From: Cetorhinus maximus | Lineage: Eukaryota | Direction of reading: 5' to 3' | DNA length: 64,000 nucleotides | Assembly: GCF_964194155.1 (NCBI RefSeq) | Contig: NC_135879.1 | Span: 137,268,001 to 137,332,000, forward strand | Part shown: piece after piece, positions 1,730 to 36,999 of the stretch | How positions within the stretch are numbered: position 1 is the stretch's first letter | Layout of the letters: every line of letters starts with the position of its first letter | The notes under the pieces: generated by a model | What the model was told of the DNA's origin: nothing | The model's input: the letters and a program-made list of their open reading frames with translations, nothing else | Databases searched by the model: none | Made by a program: the position numbers and the translations under genes

Positions 1730-2530
1730 AGGAAAACATTTTCAGACTGCATTTTCTTTGTTCCTGCTGCTGCAGTGAAGGGTTTCAGTAATACATCCTT
1801 AGCAAAGAGTCATGAGCTCTGTTGCTGGGTGGACCGAAGGTGGGGAAACTTTATTCACAGTTATCACAAGCTGTTATTAGTTTGTTTAAGTCACCTGGAC
1901 ATCACTAATCAAAATGCTGGCCTTACAACCAGGGAGGGGGAGGGAATAGTGCTGGATTACACCTTTCCCAAGGAAGCAGGCTCCCAGGTGCAGAGGGAAA
2001 CAAATAGGCTTTGTCAGGACAGCCAACTCGTCCCAGGTGTAAGGAGTATTCGAATGAAATGGCCATCAGGGCACCCACTGACAGGCCTCAGAGATTTATA
2101 AATCAGAAAGCGTTCCACTCCATCAACATTCAGGTGGTGTGCAACCATAAGAAGATATTTCTGCACATGTGCGCTCATTCCCAGGAAGTTGTCATGATGC
2201 CTTCATCCCGCGAGAGTTGTGCCTGTCTCAACTATTCCACCCATTTTCCAGGTGTGTGGCTGGCTACTCAGGGACAAGGCCTGCCCTTTGAAGAGGTGAC
2301 TCCCCACTCCCCTGAGAACCCCACAGATGGGGCCCAATGTCATTATAATGTGAGCAATATCCAGAATGGGATCATCATTGGGCAGTCAATTGGGCTGTTG
2401 AAGATGTGCTTTTGGTGCTTTGACTACTCCAGAGGAGCTCTGCAATATTCACCTGCCAGATCTCCAGGATAGTGGTTGTATACTGCATCCTATGCAACAT
2501 GGCACAGCGAAGGGGGTTCACCTTGACTGG
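1730..2530 (+). pseudogene. HARBI1-like Harbinger DDE transposase, frameshifted
   Basis: AIRAPTDRPQRFINQKAFHSINIQVVCNH (cf. FxNRKGFHSxNVQxVCD), GQSIGLLKMCFWCFDYSRGALQYSP, VVYCILCNMAQRRG. Confidence 0.85.
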
Positions 2531-2929
2531 GCAGATGTCAAGTAGGGGCCTGAGACTTTGTAGGATGAGGAGGAAGAGGAGAGAGAAGCATGGCCAGGGG
2601 AATCAGAGGGTCAGCCATCAGAAGCAGAGGGTGGCAAGGGAAGGATTAGTGAACGTCATGCCCTGGGGTTCCATGAAAGGTGCCATTGTCACCACGGGCC
2701 TCTTGATACTGAGGTGATTCACCTGAGCAACCAGGAGGGGCTCGAAACCTGAGCCTTCAAGTGATGACATCAATGCCTGAGAGATGTACCACAGTCTACA
2801 GTCTCAATCAGAAGCAGCAAGAACCTAATAGTGTCTTTGAAGGTGTACCATCAGCCTGCCTTGCTAAATGAACGAATATTGACAATCATTAGAGCAGATA
2901 GTATATTTATTTACAGTGTCTATTAAAAT

Positions 2930-4544
2930 TTACAATTGCTGCTCACGACACTCGTCTTCCTACTGGACCTCCTCAGCCCTGTGTAGGCTTTCAGGCAGCC
3001 TAGAGGGAGTCAGCAACTGGGATGAAGCTGCCCAGTCATCATTGTGCCAACAGCACATGTTCCATGTTGGGTCTGCAGCTTCTCATGTACTCCATGGACA
3101 CCGACACTCATGTTATAAACGGACTGAGTGAGCCTTGCATCCTGCACAGAATCTCACAATACTTATGTATGCACTCCAGGTGCTGCCATATGTGGCTCGC
3201 CATGAGGTTGGCCATTCTCTCCTCAGAGGAGCTCATGCACTCGAGCCCCCGAGACATGAGTCCTGTGCCATGGGCTTCTCCACTCACAGACAGTGAGCAT
3301 GCATTGCTTCCGGGAACTCTGTCATATGTCCACACATTTGCTGTAGTTGTTCTAAGCACTGAGCCCCAAACGGTGACTTGTCAGGCCCTTCCACAGTGCT
3401 TGCTGGAGCACCACTGTGACTGCCAACCCCCTCCAGGGTGATCTGTCCATGGATACTTCTGACTCTGACATCTCCTCCTGCACTCAGGTGTTATGTATCT
3501 CACCCAGTGGCCCTGATTCTAATTGCATGTAAGAACTCACTGATGTGCAAGTGCCTGAGGTGGGGAATGGTGAAGTTGCACCCTCAGATACCCCTTCCTC
3601 CTCCAGGGGTCCGAGAGGATGACCTGGCTCATGGCTCACGGGCCACTGGGACCTGTGTGAGACACAATATGTGATAATAAGAGTTAACCTTTGATATCCG
3701 AATGGCTATATAACTATGCCACCATCCACACCACCCATGTGCTCAGCATTTGGAGTTGCAATGCCCACCCCAAGGCAGCCCTCTGTGCATATCCCTTCCG
3801 CTGACCCCCAATCCACATTGTCCCCTTGTTGCCATCATGCAAAGCATATCCTTTCCCCTCCCCCAGCGCTTAACACCATCACCCCCATCAATGAAAACAT
3901 GCTGTTTTTCAATTGCCCACGACCAATCGCACCTAGATTGGGAGACATTCTACCACCGATGCTTCGGTTACAGAGCACAAACAGTATCTCCAAAGCACCC
4001 TCTAACTCACTCCATATTGCCCTTAGCTGTGGTGTCTCACCACTGGTCTGGCTCATCTCCCTGACATTATGTTCCCCCTTTTCCTATGAGGACAAGCTGA
4101 AGAGGTGTGAAGCACATTGATGAGCAGCATATGCCCATGCATGAGCATAATGTGACTTGAACTAACAGTGGTCAAACACATTTTACAACATGAGTGGTCT
4201 TCCTTCTGATTGTCTCAGGACATGGCTGGTCCATGTGTGGCCCGCCTATACTGGCATGCCACTTAGAGACAGCTAATGGCCATCTCTGCTCTACAGAAGG
4301 ATCCATTTACCTTGCCAGACTGCAGAAGGTTATGGAAGTGCTACAGCATTACATCCAGCTGTACCTGTGTTCACCCGAGGTGGTCACAATTGATGCGATC
4401 TCCAATTGGTGCTGGCTTTGTGAAGGTTGAGCAGAGATTTCAGCCCATTGGGTGCAGGATGTCCCTCTTGCCTCTCACTGACTCCACCAGGAGCTCCTGG
4501 TCCTGGTCACTGAATGGAGATGCACTCGATGCCTGGCTCCCCAT
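2930..4544 (-). pseudogene. Harbinger Myb/SANT-like DNA-binding protein gene (spliced, decayed)
   Basis: Exon 1 (4544-4311) reads MGSQASSASPFSDQDQELLVESVRGKRDILHP...HFHNLLQSGK then gtaaat. Exon 2 from about 4083 reads EKGEHNVREMSQTSGETPQLR. Confidence 0.75.
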
Positions 4545-7569: not shown

Positions 7570-10020
7570 ATTGTTGGTCAGCAAGTCAACTCTGATTGAT
7601 CAAGTTGTCACCATGGAGAACGCAGCAGGGAATTATTTTCCCTCACATTTTATTTAATTTTTTAAAAGGCGCAATGTCTGGACATGCTCATTCTGCCGGC
7701 AGAGGACTGGTCCCTGCATATAAATATATGTAATAGGATGACCAAGTGTCCCTTATTTCATGGGAGTATCTTATATCTGAATCCATTGTCCCGTGTCCCG
7801 GGCTACATGGTTGAGTATTGTTAGTGCTTTGCCTGTGGCAAACAGCTAAAGGGATGTGCTGTTCAGTATGATCCACCAATTGTTAGGATGTATGGCCTAT
7901 ATACCTGGCATCGCACTGACACTGAAATTCATATATCACATTACTCATTTGTGTGTGAGGCAAAATGTCTTTTTGAATTAACGGCAGCACTCTGTTGGTG
8001 GAAAATACCAGTTGTGTTGTTGCTACATAGGAGCAGTGTAAAACAGTTAGTTTTACCTGTTGCTCAAACTTTTCAGATATCTTACCCTTCCAGTGTAATT
8101 TGAGATAGACTGGGCACTTTTCAGGTCCGAAAGTGACGGCCTCAGGTCCATTCATGAGTATGTGCGACACACAGTGAGCAATAATTTGATTGGGGTAGCC
8201 ATTATCCTGCAGGATAGCTTTGATATGCCCTATTTCGCTGTCAAGCTTGCATGGTGAGCAAATCACTTGAGCTCTGTTTACAAGATTGCCAATAAGGACA
8301 ATCTTGTAGTGTGTGGAGCTGTAGGAATCCTGATGAATATACTGACCAGTGAAATTAGGCTTGCGGTAGACAGGAGTAGAAAACCCGTTAGTAGATTTCT
8401 CAACTAGCATGTCGTGGAAAGGGAGGTTGTTAGACTGCTCTATTTCAAAAGTGAATTTGAGAGTGGGATTGAGTGCATTAAGGTGTGTAAGGAAATTCTT
8501 ACATGCAGCTGCAGATTCAAATATAGTAAACATCATCTACATATCAGAAATATGCAAGGTGGAGGAAGTTAGGGGTCATTCCATTGAAAACACGTTTCTC
8601 ATGGAAAACAACAAAAATGTTAGTGAGAGCTGGGCCTAGAGGGAATCCCATGGTAACACCATTTATTTAGGCATACATGGGGTCATAAAGCTGTGCTCAA
8701 CTGCGTGAATTGCTAAGTTCATAAGTTCAATGTATACAGGCTTAGAACATGGTAGCACATCTAGATCACCATATTATTGTGACATGGCACAAATATCCAT
8801 GGCTTTCTTGATCTGCACCTTAGTGAATATGCTCACAATTTTGAATGAACACATATTCACAGCATTGCTATTGATATGCAACTCCTGTATGTTCTTCACA
8901 AGGGTGTAGGAATCCTTCACTGTGTATGTGGAAAACTCACTCAGAACTGATTGCAGCAACTCACTCAACTATTTAGCCAATTCATGTTATAAGATATCTA
9001 TCTTTTCCAGTCATAGATAAGAGAGGGTATAATGGGATATCATTTTTATGTGCCTTGAGCATCCATACATACATGGACTTACAATAGTGAACATGAAGAT
9101 GAATCCTATTATATATGCCACAAGGCAGCTCATTATCTTATACAAGTTTAGCAAGCATTTTTGTAACTTGCTTTCGAGCGGGGCTGTACAAGCTTGCACG
9201 GTGAGCAAATCGCTGGAGACCTGTTTACAAGATTGCTGACAAGGCCAATTTTGTAGTGTGTGGAGCTGTATGAAGTCCAGTGCTTGATGACAGGCCCAAT
9301 GGACACAACTTTGGACGCGTCTTTAAGAACGGTGTGCATTTTGTCAATATAGTGGCGCTTGTTAAGGATGAATATTCCAGTCCCTTTGTCAGGCTTGCAA
9401 ATATGTCTAGGTTTATCTTGGGGCCTTTGCAATGCCACCAAACATAAACATAAACAGCAAAGGTAGGAGAGAACTACATAGTCAACTATTGAATGTTGCG
9501 GAGAGGTCAAAAAGGGCAAGGAGAGAAGACCTATTCCAAACCCACTTCAAAATATCGACAGACTGGACATTGGCGGGAACAGAGTGGAAAATATTGTACC
9601 ATGATTAGCAGGTTGGCAGGTTGCTACTGTCCTGTTCCCAGTGAAAAGCCAGGCTGTGAGTTGCTCGTCATGATTATAGGGCATTCTGATTCTGAGTCGG
9701 AGCCAAAGTTGTGCTTCACTTTGTGCCACTTTGTGCTTCATGAATTTGATGGAAAGATCAATTCATAATGGTTCAAAATCTACAGGTCCAATGAGACTTC
9801 AGGCAATATGTTCATTACCTAAACTCTGTCTTTATATATCACAACTCTTCTACATAGATATGACAGAGGCAACTTACCTTCACCAGCGCCTCTTCACTGA
9901 TGCAGTGAGAGTTGTGCCATCTGCTCTCTCTACAGTCAGCAGTAATACTGACAAAGCTCAACATAGTTCAACTAGCATTAACCTTCAAGATCGGCAGGTC
10001 ATAATGGTACAAAACTAACA
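7570..10020 (-). mobile_element. Penelope-like retroelement (RT + GIY-YIG), decayed
   Basis: ICKPDKGTGIFILNKRHY (PLE DKG motif); LKFTFEIEQSNNLPFHDM..VYRKPNFTGQY..LQDNGYP (RT thumb); NVIYEFQCQCDARYIGHTS (GIY-YIG). Confidence 0.9.
7883..8536 (-). pseudogene. Penelope RT C-terminus / GIY-YIG endonuclease ORF remnant (217 aa)
   Basis: ORF track peptide contains VYRKP, NGYP and VIY..C.C...YIG motifs. Flanked by stops and frameshifts. Confidence 0.85.
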
Positions 10021-10189
10021 GCTATCACAAGGGGGTAAATTTTCACGTTACACTATGCTGAGAAATGGAGCAGACCCGTTATATGCAACCTGCTCATTAC
10101 ATGCAACTTGCCCATTATACAGAACCCACTTGTTATATACACGACTCATTATATACATGAGTTATTATATACAAGATGCTGATTATAGA

Positions 10190-10835
10190 CATGCCTCTGG
10201 TTATATACATCCTGTACTTCATATACACCCCACCCTTTATATACAAACTTCACTTTATTTACATACTGCACTTAATATACACTCCGCCCATTATATACAA
10301 ACTACACTTTATATACAAACTGCACTTTAACACACTGCACTTTATATACACACTGCACTTTGTATACAAACTGCATTTTAAATACACACTGCACTTTATA
10401 TACACATTGCACTTTATATACACTCCACGCTTTATATACACACTGCACTTTATATACATACTGCACTTTATATATACTGCACCCTTTAAATACAAATTGC
10501 ACTTTATATGCAAACTGCACTTTAAATACACACTAAACTTTATATACACGTTTCACTTCATAAACTCTCCACCCTTTATATACAAATTGCACTTTATATA
10601 CTTACTGCACTTTATATACACTCCACCCTTTATATACACACTGCACTTTAAATACACAGCACTTTACATACACATTGCAATTTATATATACGCCACCCTT
10701 TATATACAAACTGCACTTTATATACACACTGCACTTTATATACATACTGCACTTTGTATATACTGCACCCTTTAAATACAAACTGAACTTTACATACACT
10801 CCAACCTTTACATACACACTGCACTTTATATATGC
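10190..10835. repeat. 18-bp minisatellite, consensus TATATACACACTGCACTT
   Basis: Roughly 30-35 imperfect tandem units. The same unit resumes at 12443-12700 and appears briefly at 28495-28540. Confidence 0.95.
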
Positions 10836-13443: not shown

Positions 13444-15178
13444 ATGGAAGACACAGTCCCCAAAGGCAAGAAGACTGCAGCCCCTCCACCCTGGTTTAAT
13501 GATGCACGCCTTGAGCACCTTTTGGAGGCAGTGGAGGCCCACCGTGATGTCTTGTACTCTGGCTCTGGCTGTAGGAGGGGAAGCAACATAAAAAATCCAA
13601 CATGAGAGTTGGTGGCAGCGATGGTCAGCACCAATGACCTGCAAAAGAAGACAGCCACCCAGTGCTACAACAGGATGAATGGTCTCATCCATTCCGCCAG
13701 GATAAGTCACGCTTCTCATTATTCTCAACTCACACGCTCACAAACCCATCACACATCCACAGGGATCTCACACCTCAAGGACAACACCACTAACTCCCAC
13801 ACACACCCTCACATCTCCATCAGGCTCATATCTTCCGGAGCTCGCATCCTTCTCCTGTCCATGGCTCCGCTCACCACACAAAGATTCCACACAGTGCCAT
13901 GTGTCCTGCTCACACTCTCTCCATCTGCTTTCATGCAGGAGAAGCTGGCTCACAACAGTGAGGAGAGACCCCAAACTGGGGGTGGAGTGGCCCACATTAG
14001 GCCCCTCACTCACTTTGAGGAGTGTGCTATCGCACTGACTGGTGAGGATGTGGACCATGCCTGCGGTGAGGTGGGCGGCGAACACCCTCTTGAGGATCCT
14101 GCACATCATCCCGCTCTCAACACAAATGTGAGTGTCTCTCTCCAGGTTTTGACTCTGCTGCCATGCACTAATTATCTCTACTTTGGTTCACAGAGAGCTC
14201 TGCTAAACTAACGACACCCTCAGCCAGTCAGTCCCTCAGCTCCATCCAGATCCTCACTCCAGCCAAGAGGACTCTTCCTCCATTGAAGAGCTGGAAATAA
14301 GCAGCCTGGAAGACCTGTCACAGCGCTTACCCACACCCTGCACCAGTGCAGAGAGATACACCTTGGTGGGAACTAGATCTAGAGCAGACTTGGTTCACAA
14401 TCTGGTGGTCATCACATGGGCACATGTCCACAGCAGGAGGAGGCAGGTTCAGCCGAGCTCCACAGTATTCACAGGACCGCTGGGGAAGAGGCATCAGTGA
14501 CTGAGTCATATGATGAACTTCTGGATTTGGCTATCCAACTCATTGTGGAGAGTCAGCAGAAGGCGGGGAACATCACACAGAGAGGGTGGAAGCCCTCAAC
14601 ATAGTGGCTCGTGAGTCGGAGGAGTGCATCCGCCTGCTCTCTGATGAAGTGGTGCCCACATGTGCCCGTATGGAGGTCCCCATGGGGAGGATGGCGGACA
14701 TCATGGAGACCCTGGTCCAGCAGAATGTGGAGATGTGTGCAGTCCTGCACCCCATCACTGGAGCCATGGGTGAGTTCCTGCAGTGGCAATGCGAGAGGGA
14801 AACGTGGCACCTCAACGTCCCTCCAGGTGCTCCTTCCCCTCAAGGAGTCAGGCCGGGCCCCTCGGGCACCTGGAGGGAGGAGGAGCGGCAGCTGGACACC
14901 CTGAGTCACCCACTCGGGAATCTCAGAGGCTCTCCGCTCCCTCAAAGTACTCTTTGCCTGAGAACCCCTCCACCTTCTCCTCTGTCACCACAGAGGGAGT
15001 AGCTGGCCCACAGGAGGACAGCCAAAGCAAGCCCCAAGGCCTCAGGTCTCCAGAGGACCCAGGCCAAAGGCATCAATGGCAACAGGGCCAACCATTGCAC
15101 AGGCTGACTCTACCCCTGCTGCAGATGTCAGGGCCGTAATTAGAATTCTAAGGCATTCAAAAGTTAAGAAATTCTGAT
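13444..15178 (+). pseudogene. Harbinger Myb/SANT-like gene, three exons, decayed
   Basis: Exon 1 MEDTVPKGKKTAAPPPWFNDARLEHLLEAVEAHRDVLY..TQCYNRMNGLIHSAR with mutated donor ataagt. Acceptor tttcatgcag then EKLAHNSEERPQTGGGV (13939). Exon 3 follows ttcacag (~14192) and includes MEVPMGRMADIMETLVQQ. Confidence 0.8.
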
Positions 15179-28490: not shown

Positions 28491-29831
28491 GCAACTACGC
28501 TACACTTTATATACAACCTGTCACTTATATACACCCCAGCCCATGCTGAAGTCAATGTAAAGGGCAGACAGGGTGACAAGAGGCAGTCAGTTTGCTACTT
28601 TCCATCAGCACTGAACGTTCTCTGTGGGAAACAGCTTCACCATTCTCCCAGCAGAATCAAGCCACCAGCTGGGGGAACATTATGAGGTTTCCCCAGAGTC
28701 CCAGGCATTATAGAAATTTGAGTGGAGATCCTATAAATGCTTTGCTTCCACTGGACTGGCCACAAACTTCCTGTAGTGCTGCGCATGAAGAGAACACAGG
28801 GTTAACTTCTCAGAGAGGCCTGTATTGATGATTCAGAATGACCTGTATTTCCTGTTGTAGCGCCATTTGCAGGTTTTGGGCTAGCTGAGAGAATAAAAAG
28901 TGGGTGCTGGCAAAGAAAAAAGAGCTTAGTGCACACATTGAAGTCTGAGCCGAGGCACAAGAGCTTAAATTTTCAGAAAATTTCATAGCTTTGATGGTAT
29001 TTTAGACCATGAAGAAACAAGTTGGTAAATTTTCTTGCCTAAGCAGGAAATTCTCCAAACCTGGAAAATCAGATGGAAATTGTTTTTGTCTGGTGTATGT
29101 ATTTAAAATGATCCTTCTGCGTTCTCTTGCACTTTTTGAGCCTTCTTAGGTTCCATCTGCTGAGTTGTCACTAGTCTCATTTCCAAAAGGCATTGTGACC
29201 CAGCGGAGCAGCAGCTGTGGGTTCCCTGGGTTTATACTGATCTTGCACTCTAGTTAGGTTTGACTGAGATTTAGAAGGCATATTGGCTGTCAAGATCACC
29301 AGATCAACGTGAAAGTGAGGAGCTTGTAAACCTGAAGAAGCTGGGGAGCTTAAACAATAATTTCTACAGTTTGGAAGTACACTTGCTTCACACAGGGTCA
29401 GCCCACCAGAGGATTGTCAGACTGTGGTAATCTGAGGTGTGATACACCATTAAGTGAATGTGAGCAGATTGACCATGTGAGTGTGAGGCCCAATAGCTGT
29501 GTAGCGCAGGCCACCATGTTAATGTTAGTTTCGAGTAGGGTCTGGTTGGAGAAACACACATCATGTTAGTGCTCTGTTGTCTGTGTAAATAAATAGTATC
29601 TGCTTCATTTCATATTGATCTCTGCATTTGCAGTGTATTGTTATTGACTCACCTGCCGGTACGTAAGCGTGTAACCGGTTCACGAGAAAAAGAGCCCCAT
29701 AGGGCCAAAACACGACCAGTCGACGACACCAAGGAAAGCTGCAAAAACTCAACTGAAATGAATCAGCTGTGACTTGCAGGCCAATTGTAAATACAGCCTT
29801 CACAATAATTGTCGAGGTTATCACCCTCCAA

Positions 29832-30377
29832 TATGCCACAATTTGGCCATATCGAACTGTTTGATCAGACCACTGATGCCTGGTCACATATAGGAGAAGA
29901 GGCGGGCGACCCTCTTATTGACATGGCAGTAAAGCATACGGCCTAATTCATAGTCTAATGGCACCCAACTCCCCAGATTCCAAGAGTTTTGATGAGTTGG
30001 TGAATCTAGTGAAAAGCCACTTTCAGCTAAAACCCTTGGTAACAACGCAACATTTTAGATTCAATTTGAGGTATTGCGCCCCTGGAGAGACATTTGCTTG
30101 CTATATAGCAGCCTTAAAACAACTGACAGAGCACTGTGAGTTCGGGACGTTGATTAATGACATGTTAAGAGACCAATTAGTGTGTGGGATTAACAAAGGC
30201 GCCATTCAAAAAAGGTTGTTGTCAGAAACAAATTTAGATTTCAGCAAGGTGCTGGAGTTGATGCTCGCAATAGAAAGTGCAATCAGGGATTCAGAAGCAA
30301 TCCAAAGGGAGCATAAAATGGCACCATCCTTCACATCGGGAAGGAGGTCCCGGCTAGAAATGACATGGAAGCGCTAG
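29832..30377 (+). pseudogene. Gypsy gag
   Basis: MAPNSPDSKSFDELVNLVKSHF..FRFN..GETFACYIAALKQLTEHCEFG..MLRDQLVCGI..IQKRLLSE. Confidence 0.9.
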
Positions 30378-30451
30378 GCTCCATGGAAAGGCAGGAAACA
30401 GCCGCCATTTACATACCAGCAAAAAGCAATAATTTAATGGATAAAAACCAT

Positions 30452-31139
30452 GGGCAAATTTTACCCTTGATAGGCGGGCGGGCTCCACTGGCTCGGCGGC
30501 GGGCGGGCAGCTGATTGCCACCACCGAAATGGGCCCCGCCGCTATTTTAAGTGGGCGGGCCAATTAAAGGCTGCCCAGCGGGCCACCCAATGGGAAGTGC
30601 TATGTGCTTCCTGTGCGGGGGATTCCTCAACTGTCAGAGTGCGCTCTTTCGTGCATGCGCGTGAAAGAGCACACATCTCCCTGAAGCAAAGTGCTGCCTC
30701 AGGGAGATCGCTGAAAGGCTGGCAAATATAAAAAATAGAACAATAAAAAATTCGTTAACATGTCCCCCTCAGTTGAAAATGTCACACGAGATGGGACATG
30801 TTAATGAAATAAACAAAAACTTTATTATACGTTTTTAAAACTGATATCAAACCTCATCCTGCCACTGGATAAGGTTTGTAAAAAAATCATCTACCCGCCT
30901 GCCCGTTGGGCCCGTGCACCATGCCGAAGTTCGCACGGGTCGCTCAAAATCATCGACGATTGGCAAGCTAAGGACCTTAACGAGGCCTTTAATTAATGGC
31001 GGGCGCACGTTCCGTTGCATAGCGCGCCCGCCGACTGAAATATCACGATGTCGCGCGCTGACATCGGGACGTTCGCGCGACATTTTAAGTGCTGGCGTGT
31101 GAGCTCCGCCACCCGCATGCCAGCCAGAAGATCCTGCCC
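30452..31139. mobile_element. Harbinger MITE
   Basis: TIRs GGGCAAATTTT and AAGATCCTGCCC, flanks CAT/CAC. Confidence 0.85.
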
Positions 31140-31329
31140 CACATTATTAATGGCAGAATTGGAACTAGGCAGCCTACAACCTAGTGACAATTTAAAAGAA
31201 CCGTGTGTTTCTACTGTCATGCAATGGGATCATAATGCAATATTGTAAAGACAAATTGAGACAAAATTTCAAATAAAAAGGCAGAAGTCGTGAAATTTAT
31301 ATAATAGAGGAACCGGAAGAAACAGGGTC

Positions 31330-31670
31330 AGATATTTACTCATTACACACCTTAAAAATGGGTAAAACAGAGCCAATCTATGTGGCAGCAGAAGTCAACA
31401 GAAAACCCATCTGAATGGAAGTGGATACAGGCGCATCCATGATAGTCATGGGGGAACACACGTTTAAGTATCTGAATGGAGGAGGCCACTCACTAAAGCT
31501 GGAAAATTCAGACGCTAGATTAAAGACATATACTAGCGAAGACATGCAAGTAAAAGGTATATGCCAGTACAATATGGAAGCCAGTCTGCTAATCTTCCCC
31601 TAATGGTGATAGCAGGCAGAGGACCGAGTCTCCTCAGAAGAAACTGGGTAACAGAGATCAATTTTGAGAG
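31330..31670 (+). pseudogene. Gypsy aspartic protease
   Basis: MEVDTGASMIVMGE, LKTYT, PVQYGSQSANLPLMVIAGRGPSLLRRNW. Confidence 0.85.
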
Positions 31671-32050
31671 ATTACTGAGATCTAAACCAGAAGCAGGAAA
31701 TGTTGCTGTTTGGAAAAAGGAGTATATAAATATTGAACAAAAGGAATTCGTAGAGCTGATGCTTCAGGACAGAGTTCGAGTTGAAGTCAGTAGCCTCCAA
31801 AAAGAAAAAGGAAACCTGCTGAAGAACGTTCGCATATTGCAAGATTCTTCCAGATCCCAAATTGTACCACTAAAAAGATATGAGGAAGAATAGAAAGAAT
31901 TTTGCATATCTCTGGCTGAAATGAACAATAAATAAGCCGAGAAAGCACAATAATACTTAATTCTCCAGAAAACAACTAACAAGTATAAAAAAGAACTGGA
32001 AGAGCTGAAGAACCAGCTGTGTGGAAGCCTTAAAAATAGAGACTCCTGAG
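31670..32050 (+). pseudogene. Coiled-coil coding segment resembling UACA/RAI14-family host protein
   Basis: One frame reads KKEYINIEQKEFVE..EVSSLQKEKGNLLKNVRILQDSSRSQIVPLKRYEEE*KEFCISLAEMNNK*AEKAQ*YLILQKTTNKYKKELEELKNQL. It has a heptad pattern and is not retroelement-like. The UACA resemblance is from memory. Confidence 0.5.
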
Positions 32051-32397
32051 TTTTCAAAGGATAGATGAGGAAATGCTGGAAGACTCAACCACTGAGTTCA
32101 CTCAAGTTGAGTTCATACCTGAGCCTACTCTGGCCAACAGGGAAATTGAAAAGAAAGCCGAGATTAAAGTCAGCGCTGTCAAGAAGAAAACCGAGCAAAA
32201 GAAGACACGTAGGAAGAAAAAGCAAAGTTACTAACAAGGCACTGATTTTTTTTTTTTACACACAACGGGAAGCTGATCATTTCATGTTAAATTTAGCCTT
32301 GGCCAACATCCTGATTCTCAGAACCTGCCTTACAGTTGCAAGTTTCCTACTGAGGAGCCTAGTGGACAGATAACTCCTGACAGGGAGGCCTGAGACA

Positions 32398-34669
32398 AAC
32401 CACAAAATGGTACAGTTTAAGTTTGTAATGGACAAAGAAATAGACAAGTTACAAAAAAATGTTTTGGATTGGGGGAGAGTGGATTTTAGTAAAATAAGGC
32501 AGGATCTGGCCAAGGTAGACTGGGAACAGCTACTTGTGGGGAAATCTACAGAGGAGCAGTGGGGGGCGTTCACAAAGGAAATGGGGAGGGTACAGGCTCA
32601 ACATGTTCCCTCCAGGATGATAAGAAGGAGTAACAAGCCCAGAGAACCATGGATGACCAGAGACATTCAGGTTATGATGAGAAAGAAAAGAGAGGCTTTT
32701 AGCAAGTACAAGGGAAACAAATCAGCGGAGGCATTAGTGGAGTACAGAAAGTGCAGGGTGGAGTTTAAGAAAGGAATTAGGAGAGCGAAGAGGGGATATG
32801 AGAAAGCTCTGGCTGGTAAAAGTAGGGAAAACCCCAAGATATTCTATAAGTATATCAATGGGAAGAGGATAACCAGGGAAAGAGTAAGGCCCATAAGAGG
32901 CCAAAGGGGCAATCTATGGGTGGAGCCAGATGACATCGCTAGAGTGTTGAATGAATACTTCACATCCGTCTTCACCCAAGAGAATGAGGATGAATGTATT
33001 TAACTCTAGGAGAGAGACTGCGAGGTTCTTAAGCAACTTGAAATAGTGAGTGACAAGGTATTGGAGGTTTTAGCAGGCCTAAAAGTGGACAAATCTCCAG
33101 GTCCGGATGATTTGGGTCCCAGACTGCTGAGGGAGGCAAGGGAGGAGATCTCAGGGGCTCTGACCCAAATATTTAATTCCTCTCTGGCCACAGGGGAGGT
33201 GCCGGAGGACTGGAGAACAGCTAATATGGTTCCGCTATTTAAGAAGAGTTGTAGAGATAAGCCAGGGAACTACAGGCCAGTGAGTCCCATGTCAGTATTA
33301 GGGAAACTATTGGAGAAAATTCTTAAGGAGAGAACCTATCTCCACTTGGAGAGGCAAGGTTTGATCAGGGATAGTCAGCAAGGCTTTGTCAGAGGGAGGT
33401 CATGCCTAACAAATTTGATTGAATTTTTTGAGGAGGTGACCAAGTGTGTAGATGAGGGTAGTACATTTGATGTAGTTTATATGGATTTCGTCAAAGCCTT
33501 TGACAAGGCCCCACATGGGAGACTTATAAAGAAGGGAAATGCACATGGGATACAGGGTAATTTGATATGGTGGATTCAAAATTGGCTTAGCTTTAGGAGA
33601 CAGAGGATGATGACAGAAGGATGCTTTAGTGACTGGAAGCCAGTCTCCAGTGGCATACTACAGGGATCTGTGCTGGGTCCCCTATTATTTGTCATTTATA
33701 TAAATGACATAGATGACTATGTGGGGGGTAGGATTAGTAAATTTGTGGATGACACAAAGATTGCCCAGGTGGTTTACAGTGAGGTTGAGTGTCTTGGGCT
33801 ACAGGAAGATATAGACAGGATGGTCAAATGCCAGATAAGTGGCAGATGGAATTAAACCCTGAAAAGTGTGAGGTGATACACTTTGGAAGGAGTAATTTGA
33901 CAAGGAAGTATTCAATGAACGGCATGACACTAGGAAGTTCTGAGGAACAAAGGGACCTTGGCGTGTGAGTCCATAGATCTCTAAAGGCGGAGGGGCATGT
34001 TAGTGGGGTGGTGAAAAAGGCATATGGGACACTTGCCTTTATCAATCGAGGCATAGATTACAAAAGTGGGGAGGTGATGTTGGAGTTGTATAGAACCTTG
34101 GTGAAGCCACAGCTGGAGTACTGTGTGCAGTCCTCGTCGCCACTTTATACCAAGGATGTGATTGCACTGGAGGGCGTGCAGAGGAGATTCACCAGGATGT
34201 TGCCTGGGATAAAACTTTTAAGTTATGAAGAGAGGTTGGATAGACTTGGGTTGTTTTCTTTGGTGCAGAGAAGACTGAGGGGCGACCTGATCAAGGTGTA
34301 CAAGATTATGAGGGGCATGGACAAGGTGGATAGGGAGCAGCTGTTCCCCTTAGTTGAAGGGTCAGTCATGAGGGGACATAAGTTCAAAGTGAGGGGCAGG
34401 AGGTTTAGGGGGGATGTGAGGAAAACTTTTTAACCCAGTGGGTGGTGATGGTCTGGAATGCACTGCCTGCGAGGGTGGTGGAGGCGGGTTGCCTCACATC
34501 CTTTAAAAAGTACCTGGATGAGCACTTGGCACATCATAACATTCAAGGCTATGGGCCAAGTGCTGATAAATGGGATTAGGTAGGTAGGTCAGGTGTTTCT
34601 CACGTGTCGGTGCAGACTCGATGGGCTGAAGGGCCTCTTCTGCACTGTGTGATTCTGTGATTCTGTGAT
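32398..34669 (+). mobile_element. CR1 LINE, 5'-truncated, relatively well-preserved ORF2
   Basis: Near-contiguous ORFs 32407-33003, 33046-33855 and 34008-34433 (KSPGPD, NYRPVS, YMDFVKAFDK, QGSVLGPLLF, FVDDTK). 3' tail (ATTCTGTG)n at about 34645-34669. Confidence 0.95.
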
Positions 34670-36999
34670 CTGAAGTCGTAGAACTAAGACAGTCAACTTC
34701 TTTCCATAAACCTTCTGAAAGACTGAATTTAAATAATAAATAGTTGATATATTGTAAAATGTATTTTCAAGTAAAGGGGGAGGGATGTGGTAATCAGGGG
34801 GGTAATACTCCTTTAAGAGACTGTGAGCAGATTGACCACATTACTGTGCGACCCAATAGCTGTGTAGCGCAGGCTACAATGTTGATGTTAGTCTAGAGTA
34901 GGGTCTGGTTGGGGAAGCACACATCATGTTAATGCTCTGTTGTCTATGTAAATATGTGCTTCATTTCACATTGGTCTCTGCATCTGGAGTATATTGTAAT
35001 TGACTTGCCTGCCAACAGATTGGTTTGCGAGCAAAGTGACCCCTTAGTAAAGCATAACACAGACCCTCCCACCCACATTGCGTGGATGGCACCACAACAC
35101 ACTCACTCTGTTACATGAACATTGGGGGATTCCACTCCCTCAATATCCAAATAGCAGATCAGAGGCTCCTGTATGTCAACATTCAATATTCAGCAAGTTG
35201 CCGTGCTGCCTTCACCTTTAAGTATTTCAGCTGTCCATGACCTCTTCAGGAAAGAAGTGCAGATCCACAGATGGTCAAATTCAGGCAGATTTCATAATTC
35301 TCTTACAATCACAACTTACATTATTGAACATTCCCCAAATAATAAACAAACTTTGCTTCAAAATGCTCCATAAAAATAACAGTAAATTTTGCAGTTACAT
35401 GCATGACAACCAGGAATATGTTTCTCCTGTTTTGTTCTCTAGTTCTCTTCAAAAGATTGAAAGGGTTGATGTTAAATGTATTTATTCATGAGCACAAAGC
35501 CACTGGAGGGCAGTAATGGTTCTTATCTTATTAAAGTGATTGTTTTCACAGTTACATTCAGGAATAAATGACTGCATAGGAAGGAGCAGAGACAGCATCC
35601 ATCCTCTTCCCCCTCCCATACCTCACCCCATTACCACTGTGTTACTAAATATAACCCAACTTCGATCTTATTATTTGAATGCATAGTTAAATATAGTAAG
35701 TACATTGTTCTGGTTTTCTGCAGTTTTAGATTTCTTCCATCTTTACTCTTTGTTTCATTGTTCTCTATCTACATCAACACTGCTCTTTCATGTCCCTGGA
35801 TGTTAAAGCCAATTTATTTCCTCCCCTGCTATATCCAACTGTTGCATCCCCAAGGCGGCAATGCCACAGTAGTATTTTCTTTGACGGCAATCCCAGTGAG
35901 ACTGGTATTTCTTTACCACAGATCAAACTCAGGACAGACGCTCAATATTGTGATTTGCCATGCCCTTTTCTTCAGTCGTCATTTTCATAGCTTGCAAAGT
36001 GTTCTCCCACACATCCTCTAAATTGCATTTGGTATAACCCTGTTGCTCAGATTAAATGGGGTGAGGTATATCCTGTGAATAAATTTAAACTGTGCTGATT
36101 GAATAATGCAGGAAAGTCGGGAACAAGAAAAGGCCGTTTAGCTCATCAAAATTGCTTCATCCATGTATTTAACTGTGATGGTCTTTCGCACCCCACTACC
36201 ACCATCTGCTGATTCCCTCTTCTAAGGAACCCTGGCTTCAGATATCTGGAGTCGTTCTGGCGTATTTCAGTGAGTCACTGGAATCACTGGAAGCTAGGTC
36301 AGAATCTGGGCATAACAGATCGGGAACCTAGTGTTAAATTTATGGGATAGCCTGTTGAGGGCAGAGCTTGCCACTAACCTGAAACATTAACAACATAAGG
36401 GCGGGGCAGGGGAAGGGGCCACTGACCAGGACACCTAAACTCAGAGTTCCCGTACCTCAGACCATCAAATGGAATCCAACATAGGGTTAGCCAAGCATAT
36501 TGGTTGACCCTGGGCAGATCTGAGGGGAAAATTCAGGCCATGATGATGGATTGGAGCCTAGAGATTTGCCATCAAATGATCTTTGCTTAATTTTTAATAT
36601 AAACACCTTTTTTAAGAGGGTTGCAATCAGGCGACTAAACTTCCTTTATGGGGGTCAGATTCCAGTTCCCATTTGCCCGGGAATTTACATTACACAACTG
36701 GCCTTGCTTCAGTGGTAGGTGGCAAAGTGATGGAGGCATCCAACAATGATTCTGAATTAAGGAGCCTCCTCTGGCCCCACAAACCTTGTCCTAAAATATC
36801 TCTGGAATGCATTCATTTTTGAAATACAAAGCAGAGGAAAAAGAATTGGCGGCCCTGTGATGTTGCCCAAGGTCCTCCAGGGTTTTGAGTGTGGAGGGAT
36901 GGCGGGGGTGAGTTGGGTGGGACAGGACCTCAGCTTCCAACAGGTCCAGGCATTGTAATTATATGTTACAAAAGTGGAAATAGCCAAAAGGCACCCCCG

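Follow-up and report, generated by a model that had tools for sequence, protein, structure and literature searches.

The window, a 64,000-nt stretch of the Cetorhinus maximus genome, contains at 29423-35059 an element that begins with TG, ends with CA and is flanked on both sides by CAGAC (Table 1). Its two LTRs are 86% and 85% identical in two ungapped blocks and 83% over 235 nt, and a degenerate primer-binding site follows the 5′ LTR. The two LTRs, perfect CAGAC duplication, gag and protease reported in a first-pass annotation are all present, the protease as a D-T-G motif with a weak Pfam match under the cut-off (E = 0.0074); the coiled-coil peptide quoted there, with its three stops, is also found. 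The copy is broken: besides the coiled-coil stops, it carries frameshifts and two later insertions. The single reading frame claimed to run from the protease into the coiled coil is not that of this copy, in which the D-T-G half and the coiled coil lie in different frames; the fusion frame is visible in other copies. As detailed below, the element is a decayed member of a family, hereafter W, that is non-autonomous, of Gypsy type and present in high copy number, with the order LTR, gag, protease, coiled coil, LTR.

Table 1 Features of the W element in the window
Feature	Position	Strand	Remark
5′ target-site duplication CAGAC	29418..29422	+	sequence repeated 3′ of the element
5′ LTR (3′ end approximate)	29423..29712	+	common to the pol-coding partners L161-L163
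gag, decayed, interrupted by a later insertion	29833..31380	+	family copies and partners ~80-85% identical as DNA
Secondary insertion, high-copy repeat with short imperfect inverted ends	~30451..31139	.	splits gag
Aspartic protease, partner-type part	31415..31616	+	D-T-G at 31424-31432; frameshifted in the window copy
Protease C-terminus and linker, family-P type	31617..31738	+	partner-like to P-like switch at ~31616
UACA exon piece A, coiled coil	31739..32012	+	three stops in the window copy; assigned by host-exon comparison
UACA exon piece B	32013..32102	+	abuts piece A across an internal deletion common to U and P
Non-UACA tail, basic C-terminus, stop	32103..32234	+	first part common to U and P
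Remnant of pol 3′ end	32341..32402	+	resumes at 34668 behind the LINE
Secondary insertion, 5′-truncated LINE with RT	32403..34667	+	
Polypurine tract	34773..34785	+	
3′ LTR	34786..35059	+	
3′ target-site duplication CAGAC	35060..35064	+	

The insertion that splits gag is a very high-copy repeat and has no match in any of 29 other W copies. The LINE, which we take to be of CR1 type, is a later insertion, because in 17 of the 29 other copies the sequences flanking it adjoin each other. It contains an RVT_1 match at 33010-33852 (E = 9e-22), and the claim that no RT, RNase H or integrase follows the coiled coil needs two corrections: an RT does lie downstream, but inside the LINE, and a short pol 3′ end is retained ahead of the polypurine tract. 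The 5′ flank of the element had no cover, at 88%, in three sequencing runs from two other organisms, and leaves the insertion undated. Elsewhere in the window lie a 217-aa frame at 7883-8536 (minus strand), presumably resembling a Penelope-type RT/GIY-YIG end, a 201-aa frame at 13606-14211 (plus strand), presumably resembling a Myb/SANT-like Harbinger-associated protein, and a short-period tandem repeat at 10161-10775 that produces a low-complexity open frame.

Positions 31500-32380, searched as DNA against the 4.0-Gb genome, returned 3221 candidates, of which 40 were scored; all 39 copies other than that of the window cross the protease/coiled-coil junction at 84-87%. The proposed protease/coiled-coil fusion is thus a property of many LTR-flanked copies and not a secondary insertion unique to this locus, and W has likely amplified to thousands of copies. 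Copies without interruptions measure ~2.9 kb, target-site duplications have at most one mismatch in 9 of 12 scorable cases, and the median LTR-LTR identity is 86% (17 copies). Contigs from two other organisms (three runs) also cover the junction, which single contigs cross in two of these runs; in run X22 there was no cover. A stop-free frame spanning protease and coiled coil survives in 2 of 30 copies (292 and 295 aa). Across 13 anchors placed from the gag start to the stop, the commonest spacing is divisible by three in 12 of 12 intervals, and D-T-G is retained in 16 of 27 copies; judging from these spacings and this retention, W likely encoded a single Gag-protease-coiled-coil protein.

Among 30 RNase H loci, several carry gag and protease DNA 79-85% identical to that of W. 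Three of them (L161-L163; 4.7-4.8 kb) have the same LTR as W, share its gag and protease and, taken together, match protease, RT, RNase H and integrase in Gypsy order (PR-RT-RH-IN). The match of W to these partners covers two stretches, 5′ LTR to protease and pol end to 3′ LTR; between them, ~0.8 kb stands in W where the partners have ~2.5 kb of RT-RNase H-integrase. An endogenous retrovirus would have env between pol and the 3′ LTR, but no env family match was obtained in L161-L163, in which pol extends nearly to the polypurine tract. The LTRs with TG...CA, short target-site duplication, primer-binding site and polypurine tract are hallmarks of Ty3/Gypsy elements, and the lineage is presumably Mag. 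With neither RT nor RNase H and without most of the integrase, with multiple independent insertions and with matching pol-coding partners, W is a non-autonomous Gypsy-type family, as had been proposed from the window alone; it also has host coding sequence in place of internal ORFs between two LTRs, one of the traits of LTR-mediated retrocopies.

When 1.84 billion proteins were searched with a profile built from 17 natural coiled-coil pieces, five matched. Only stingray UACA (E = 3.4e-13) does so over the full length of the coiled coil; the other four are two shark gene models that are repeat copies and match the genome at 100%, an unnamed contig protein and a weak match to a repeat. The host UACA gene is present in the genome: its open frame spans 911 codons and has 62% identity to stingray UACA, and three more exons lie downstream. 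The window peptide is 45% identical to this exon over 80 aa (72 bits), versus 27 bits for the ninein exon and a maximum of 28.5 bits among 200 shuffles, so that the similarity goes beyond chance and favours UACA; as DNA, piece A of the window and the host exon share 153 of 254 nt over 31759-32012. Judged by these scores, the coiled coil derives from the large UACA exon, in agreement with the origin suggested in the first-pass annotation; the assignment is the best among all proteins, and its pairwise part covers UACA and ninein rather than RAI14 or ANKRD24. Other searches added little: with the L006 coiled coil as query, a word-indexed search of longer proteins found no match among 1403 candidates, the later profile search being the one that gave UACA; PDB and Pfam held nothing meaningful for the coiled coil; and an ankyrin search of the genome was unhelpful. 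The weak repeat match of the profile search, a ladybird protein (P0005, E = 5.6e-05), was set aside, as it matches only 24 positions, all outside piece A. Two RefSeq proteins annotated as "uncharacterized" (P0002 and P0003) are copies of these repeats (L051, L052, L101) and not ordinary genes; P0002 matched only itself among proteins of similar length, with no gene models from other species.

UACA sequence resides in two further families, the older family U and a second one, P, whose copies were chosen by protein similarity. The 49 U loci, retrieved with UACA or P0003, all align to the host UACA exon at the DNA level, almost always inside positions 2362-3912 of the oriented locus; both ends are intra-exonic, internal deletions are nested, and up to 1.55 kb of the exon is carried. 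When 20 of these loci were taken with 10 kb, 15 showed LTR-like flanking repeats and none contained a W-type gag or protease inside the element; translated copies start with a truncated frame of another type, which we take to be gag-like (it has no Pfam match). U elements also carry pieces of two more host genes, ninein (12 of 14 elements examined) and TPR (14 of 14), the latter with at least five successive exons devoid of introns in 8 of 14. Because its splice joints are exact and introns are absent, the TPR cargo of U was captured from mRNA. The UACA piece lies within one exon and cannot by itself demonstrate such an origin, and the ninein piece is likewise confined to one exon; for both, we infer mRNA capture. 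The intron loss is seen for TPR in U and in the lineage G described below; W carries no TPR piece, none being found in either of the two copies checked. Family P (30 loci) has a gag and protease ~63% identical to those of W; its UACA piece is shorter, and several copies retain remnants of integrase. Ninein sequence was found in none of 29 W and 30 P copies.

The joints within the U cargo differ in how well they keep the reading frame. The UACA deletion joint does so in 40 of 43 copies, a further deletion in 22 of 25 and a third in 4 of 4, compared with 13 of 22 for the UACA-ninein capture joint and only 7 of 15 for ninein-TPR; the commonest lengths of deletions and capture joints alike preserve the frame. 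Short shared sequences are observed where the UACA deletion was joined, where ninein meets TPR and at the crossover in the protease, and may reflect switch points; the original UACA ends border sequence that matches none of the three donors. Two coiled-coil-like stretches of U (L088, L092, L094 and L095), ~50 aa before and ~30 aa after the UACA piece, match none of UACA, ninein or TPR and possibly come from a fourth and fifth donor; L081, L082 and L084 form a U subfamily with rearranged cargo, in which piece B and the tail precede piece A; and dispersed matches to ninein aa 1046-1163 at 59-65% (G000:C23:5732638, C3:177759823 and C3:176987310) possibly represent another capture.

For the TPR domain, the genome gave 1687 candidates; 150 were scored, and all 150 are above the cut-off. 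Among 29 loci with the TPR domain, 6 have UACA, 19 have gag or protease of a separate lineage, G, and 4 have neither. G (L207-L212, L172-L200) is a SCAN-gag LTR lineage whose protease is fused in frame to spliced TPR coiled-coil exons. One locus, L208, yields SCAN, weak zinc knuckle and TPR matches in a single 669-aa frame, and we take the stretch between zinc knuckle and TPR to be the protease. A host coiled coil thus lies behind the protease in W, P and G. The distance between G and U TPR sequences is much smaller than the summed distances of each to the host, and this proximity points to one shared capture. Seven TPR-domain matches (G000:C24, at four places, C215, C1272 and C1433) share one 120-codon open frame and have two scores in common, which suggests recent duplication of a carrier.

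The first-pass annotation had W itself capture the host mRNA. However, a single internal deletion joint in UACA and a single non-UACA tail are common to U, P and W (37 of the 49 U loci were used in this comparison, with two duplicates dropped and 80% cover required), and P and W have a one-codon deletion in common. W tracks its partner through most of the protease and becomes P-like at ~31616, the position at which loose ends also start in two other organisms (three runs). In a tree of 36 rows, host and U, then P, then W form a ladder, the branch to W being long (0.32) and the W copies star-like. These shared joints and this tree lead us to infer one capture into U followed by two hand-overs by template switching, and W likely obtained its UACA piece by recombination from other LTR families rather than straight from the host. 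Direct and independent capture of UACA mRNA by W is exceedingly improbable: W does align to the host exon unaided, but it shares with U and P derived features that the host is without, and it is closer to P (175 of 253 nt) than to the host exon.

Selection on the cargo was assessed throughout by pairwise comparisons of natural copies, those between U and P and between P and W excluding the host. Within families, the ratio of change at third to first and second positions of piece A is 0.96, 1.18 and 1.01, the equality expected for decay after insertion. Between families, the net ratio rises to 3.11 (1.65-5.87) for U-P and 2.98 (1.73-5.41) for P-W, with distances that are approximate, since the U and P copies are heterogeneous and were picked by protein similarity. 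The excess persists when A and T sites are analysed separately; at second-position G and C sites, which number 7 and 12, divergence is about equal to that of third positions. NG86 values for piece A are 0.10-0.16 (net, P-W) versus 0.5-0.6 within families, and no stop is common to more than 8 of 30 W copies. The protease is more strongly constrained (ratio 5.63). TPR between G and U has a ratio of 2.07 (1.12-4.11), with one locus entered twice among the 20 G rows, and piece B with the tail gave no significant signal (U-P 0.80, P-W 1.26). Third positions that evolve about three times faster between but not within families constitute statistical evidence that piece A was under purifying selection while the elements replicated.

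Taken together, we regard it as probable that W is an element lacking RT, RNase H and most of integrase and carrying, fused in frame behind its protease, a UACA coiled coil that was likely relayed by template switching, was maintained under constraint and likely served as an oligomerisation module. In the proposed scenario, the UACA, ninein and spliced TPR pieces now residing in U would have been captured from co-packaged mRNAs during reverse transcription; a shortened UACA piece would then have passed from U into P and on into W, meeting a different background of gag, protease and LTR at each step; W would have been copied in trans by pol-coding partners bearing the same LTR; and, as the statistics indicate, selection would have acted between families against amino-acid changes in piece A. 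These steps very probably hold jointly. The last step, in which the coiled coil would take over dimerisation from pol and aid protein assembly and the packaging of the element's own RNA, is tentative, and we give it slightly less than an even chance. It is favoured by the occurrence of unrelated coiled coils at the same place behind the protease and by a structural model of one long helix (residues 2-127, mean pLDDT 76, pTM 0.31). According to the available text of two studies (PMC11998509, PMC5899837), activation of the HIV-1 protease requires Gag-Pol dimerisation, in which RT is involved, and a leucine zipper beside the protease boosts its activity; that zipper, however, is N-terminal to the protease and reduced the particle yield, whereas the coiled coil of the elements lies behind the protease. 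Furthermore, no protease was found in U, in which the coiled coils sit behind a truncated gag, and a protease-specific role therefore cannot account for every carrier. A broader formulation, evenly poised between right and wrong in our estimate, would be that UACA, ninein and TPR supply an exchangeable host coiled-coil cassette, built from mRNA, passed by recombination among at least four families of differing LTRs and gags, standing in for pol and selected at the level of the element.

Other roles for the coiled coils have to be weighed against oligomerisation. UACA, ninein and TPR are located at the cytoskeleton, the centrosome and the nuclear pore, and all three are long coiled-coil scaffolds; the captured pieces might accordingly act as address labels that pair with their host counterparts, or the basic tail as a nuclear signal, and so bring particles to these sites. 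The K/R-rich C-terminus of W and the precedent of CopiaMBD, a host domain captured for targeting as far as the available text describes it (PMC6673714), are in keeping with such a role. Nevertheless, we consider it unlikely, given that the place behind the protease is occupied by UACA in W and P but by TPR in G and that the pieces shorten through nested deletions, both of which fit a generic property better than a single partner, and that the tail is without a selection signal. Still less probable is that the pieces are passengers, with selection only for an open frame or RNA stability and with A-rich coiled-coil mRNAs simply offering many template-switch matches. The short shared sequences at the deletion and ninein-TPR joints, the loss of ninein and TPR from W and P and the near neutrality of piece B and the tail would all be accommodated, but avoidance of stops alone can produce neither the three-fold third-position excess in piece A nor that in TPR between G and U.

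Selection could also have acted on the host, through a domesticated gag-protease-UACA gene that seeded the copies. The long branch to W, the star-like arrangement of its copies and the annotation of two repeat copies as RefSeq genes are compatible with such a gene. We hold it to be very improbable, because the LTRs, gag and protease of W are at within-family distance from the pol-coding partners, because the selection signal repeats in the U-P, P-W and G-U comparisons, and because none of the 30 W loci examined is intact and of low divergence. Oligomerisation remains our preferred role for the coiled coil.

The captured pieces appear to be beneficial to the transposons, as they are found in many copies, were transferred between lineages and retain their protein sequence. 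With donors, joints and intermediates all present in one genome, the shark families offer a legible case of the gain of an accessory domain by retroelements, and they make testable which protein a non-autonomous element must supply in cis. In addition, the repeats yield false gene models and will mislead anyone looking for shark UACA, ninein and TPR. Capture of host genes is familiar from retroviral oncogenes and from single retrocopies. The first-pass annotation considered capture by non-retroviral LTR elements to be rarely described in vertebrates; in fact, cases mediated by LTRs are documented for zebrafish, chicken, mouse and human in the available text of Tan et al. 2016 (PMC5131818), so that capture by itself is not new. 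Our literature search, which lay outside Repbase, Dfam and most subscription journals, where these families may be catalogued, found no account of them and no description of cargo amplification, relay between LTR lineages or selection on the cargo; as far as these searches extend, it is in these three respects that the shark elements are new relative to published captures.

Comparison with known systems, as described in the available text of each source, places the shark families among several partial analogs. In the retrocopies of Tan et al. 2016 (PMC5131818), as probably in W, pieces of host mRNA replace internal ORFs; short shared sequences, possibly comparable to those at the shark joints, lie at their joints, and some are multi-gene chimeras, as is U. 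However, they are recent, reside at individual loci and had their constraint measured against the parent gene, whereas the shark cargo is fixed in families of high copy number, passes from one LTR lineage to another and shows its constraint between families of elements. The maize Bs1 element (PMC13317346, PMC5131818) carries pieces of three host genes, just as U carries UACA, ninein and TPR, but it belongs to a plant and its pieces come from enzyme genes; the donors in the shark, a vertebrate, all encode coiled coils, and their pieces were relayed to further lineages. In the bdelloid LTR retrotransposons (PMC5408684), extra ORFs, some of them coiled-coil, are common to unrelated retroelements, yet these ORF3s are separate and downstream of pol, in contrast to the in-frame fusions with traceable donors that replace pol in the shark. 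Finally, CopiaMBD of arthropods (PMC6673714) resembles the shark families in that a host domain was taken up and retained by an LTR retrotransposon; its domain has a tested binding function, whereas the shark coiled coil replaces pol in non-autonomous elements, and its proposed role is a putative one.
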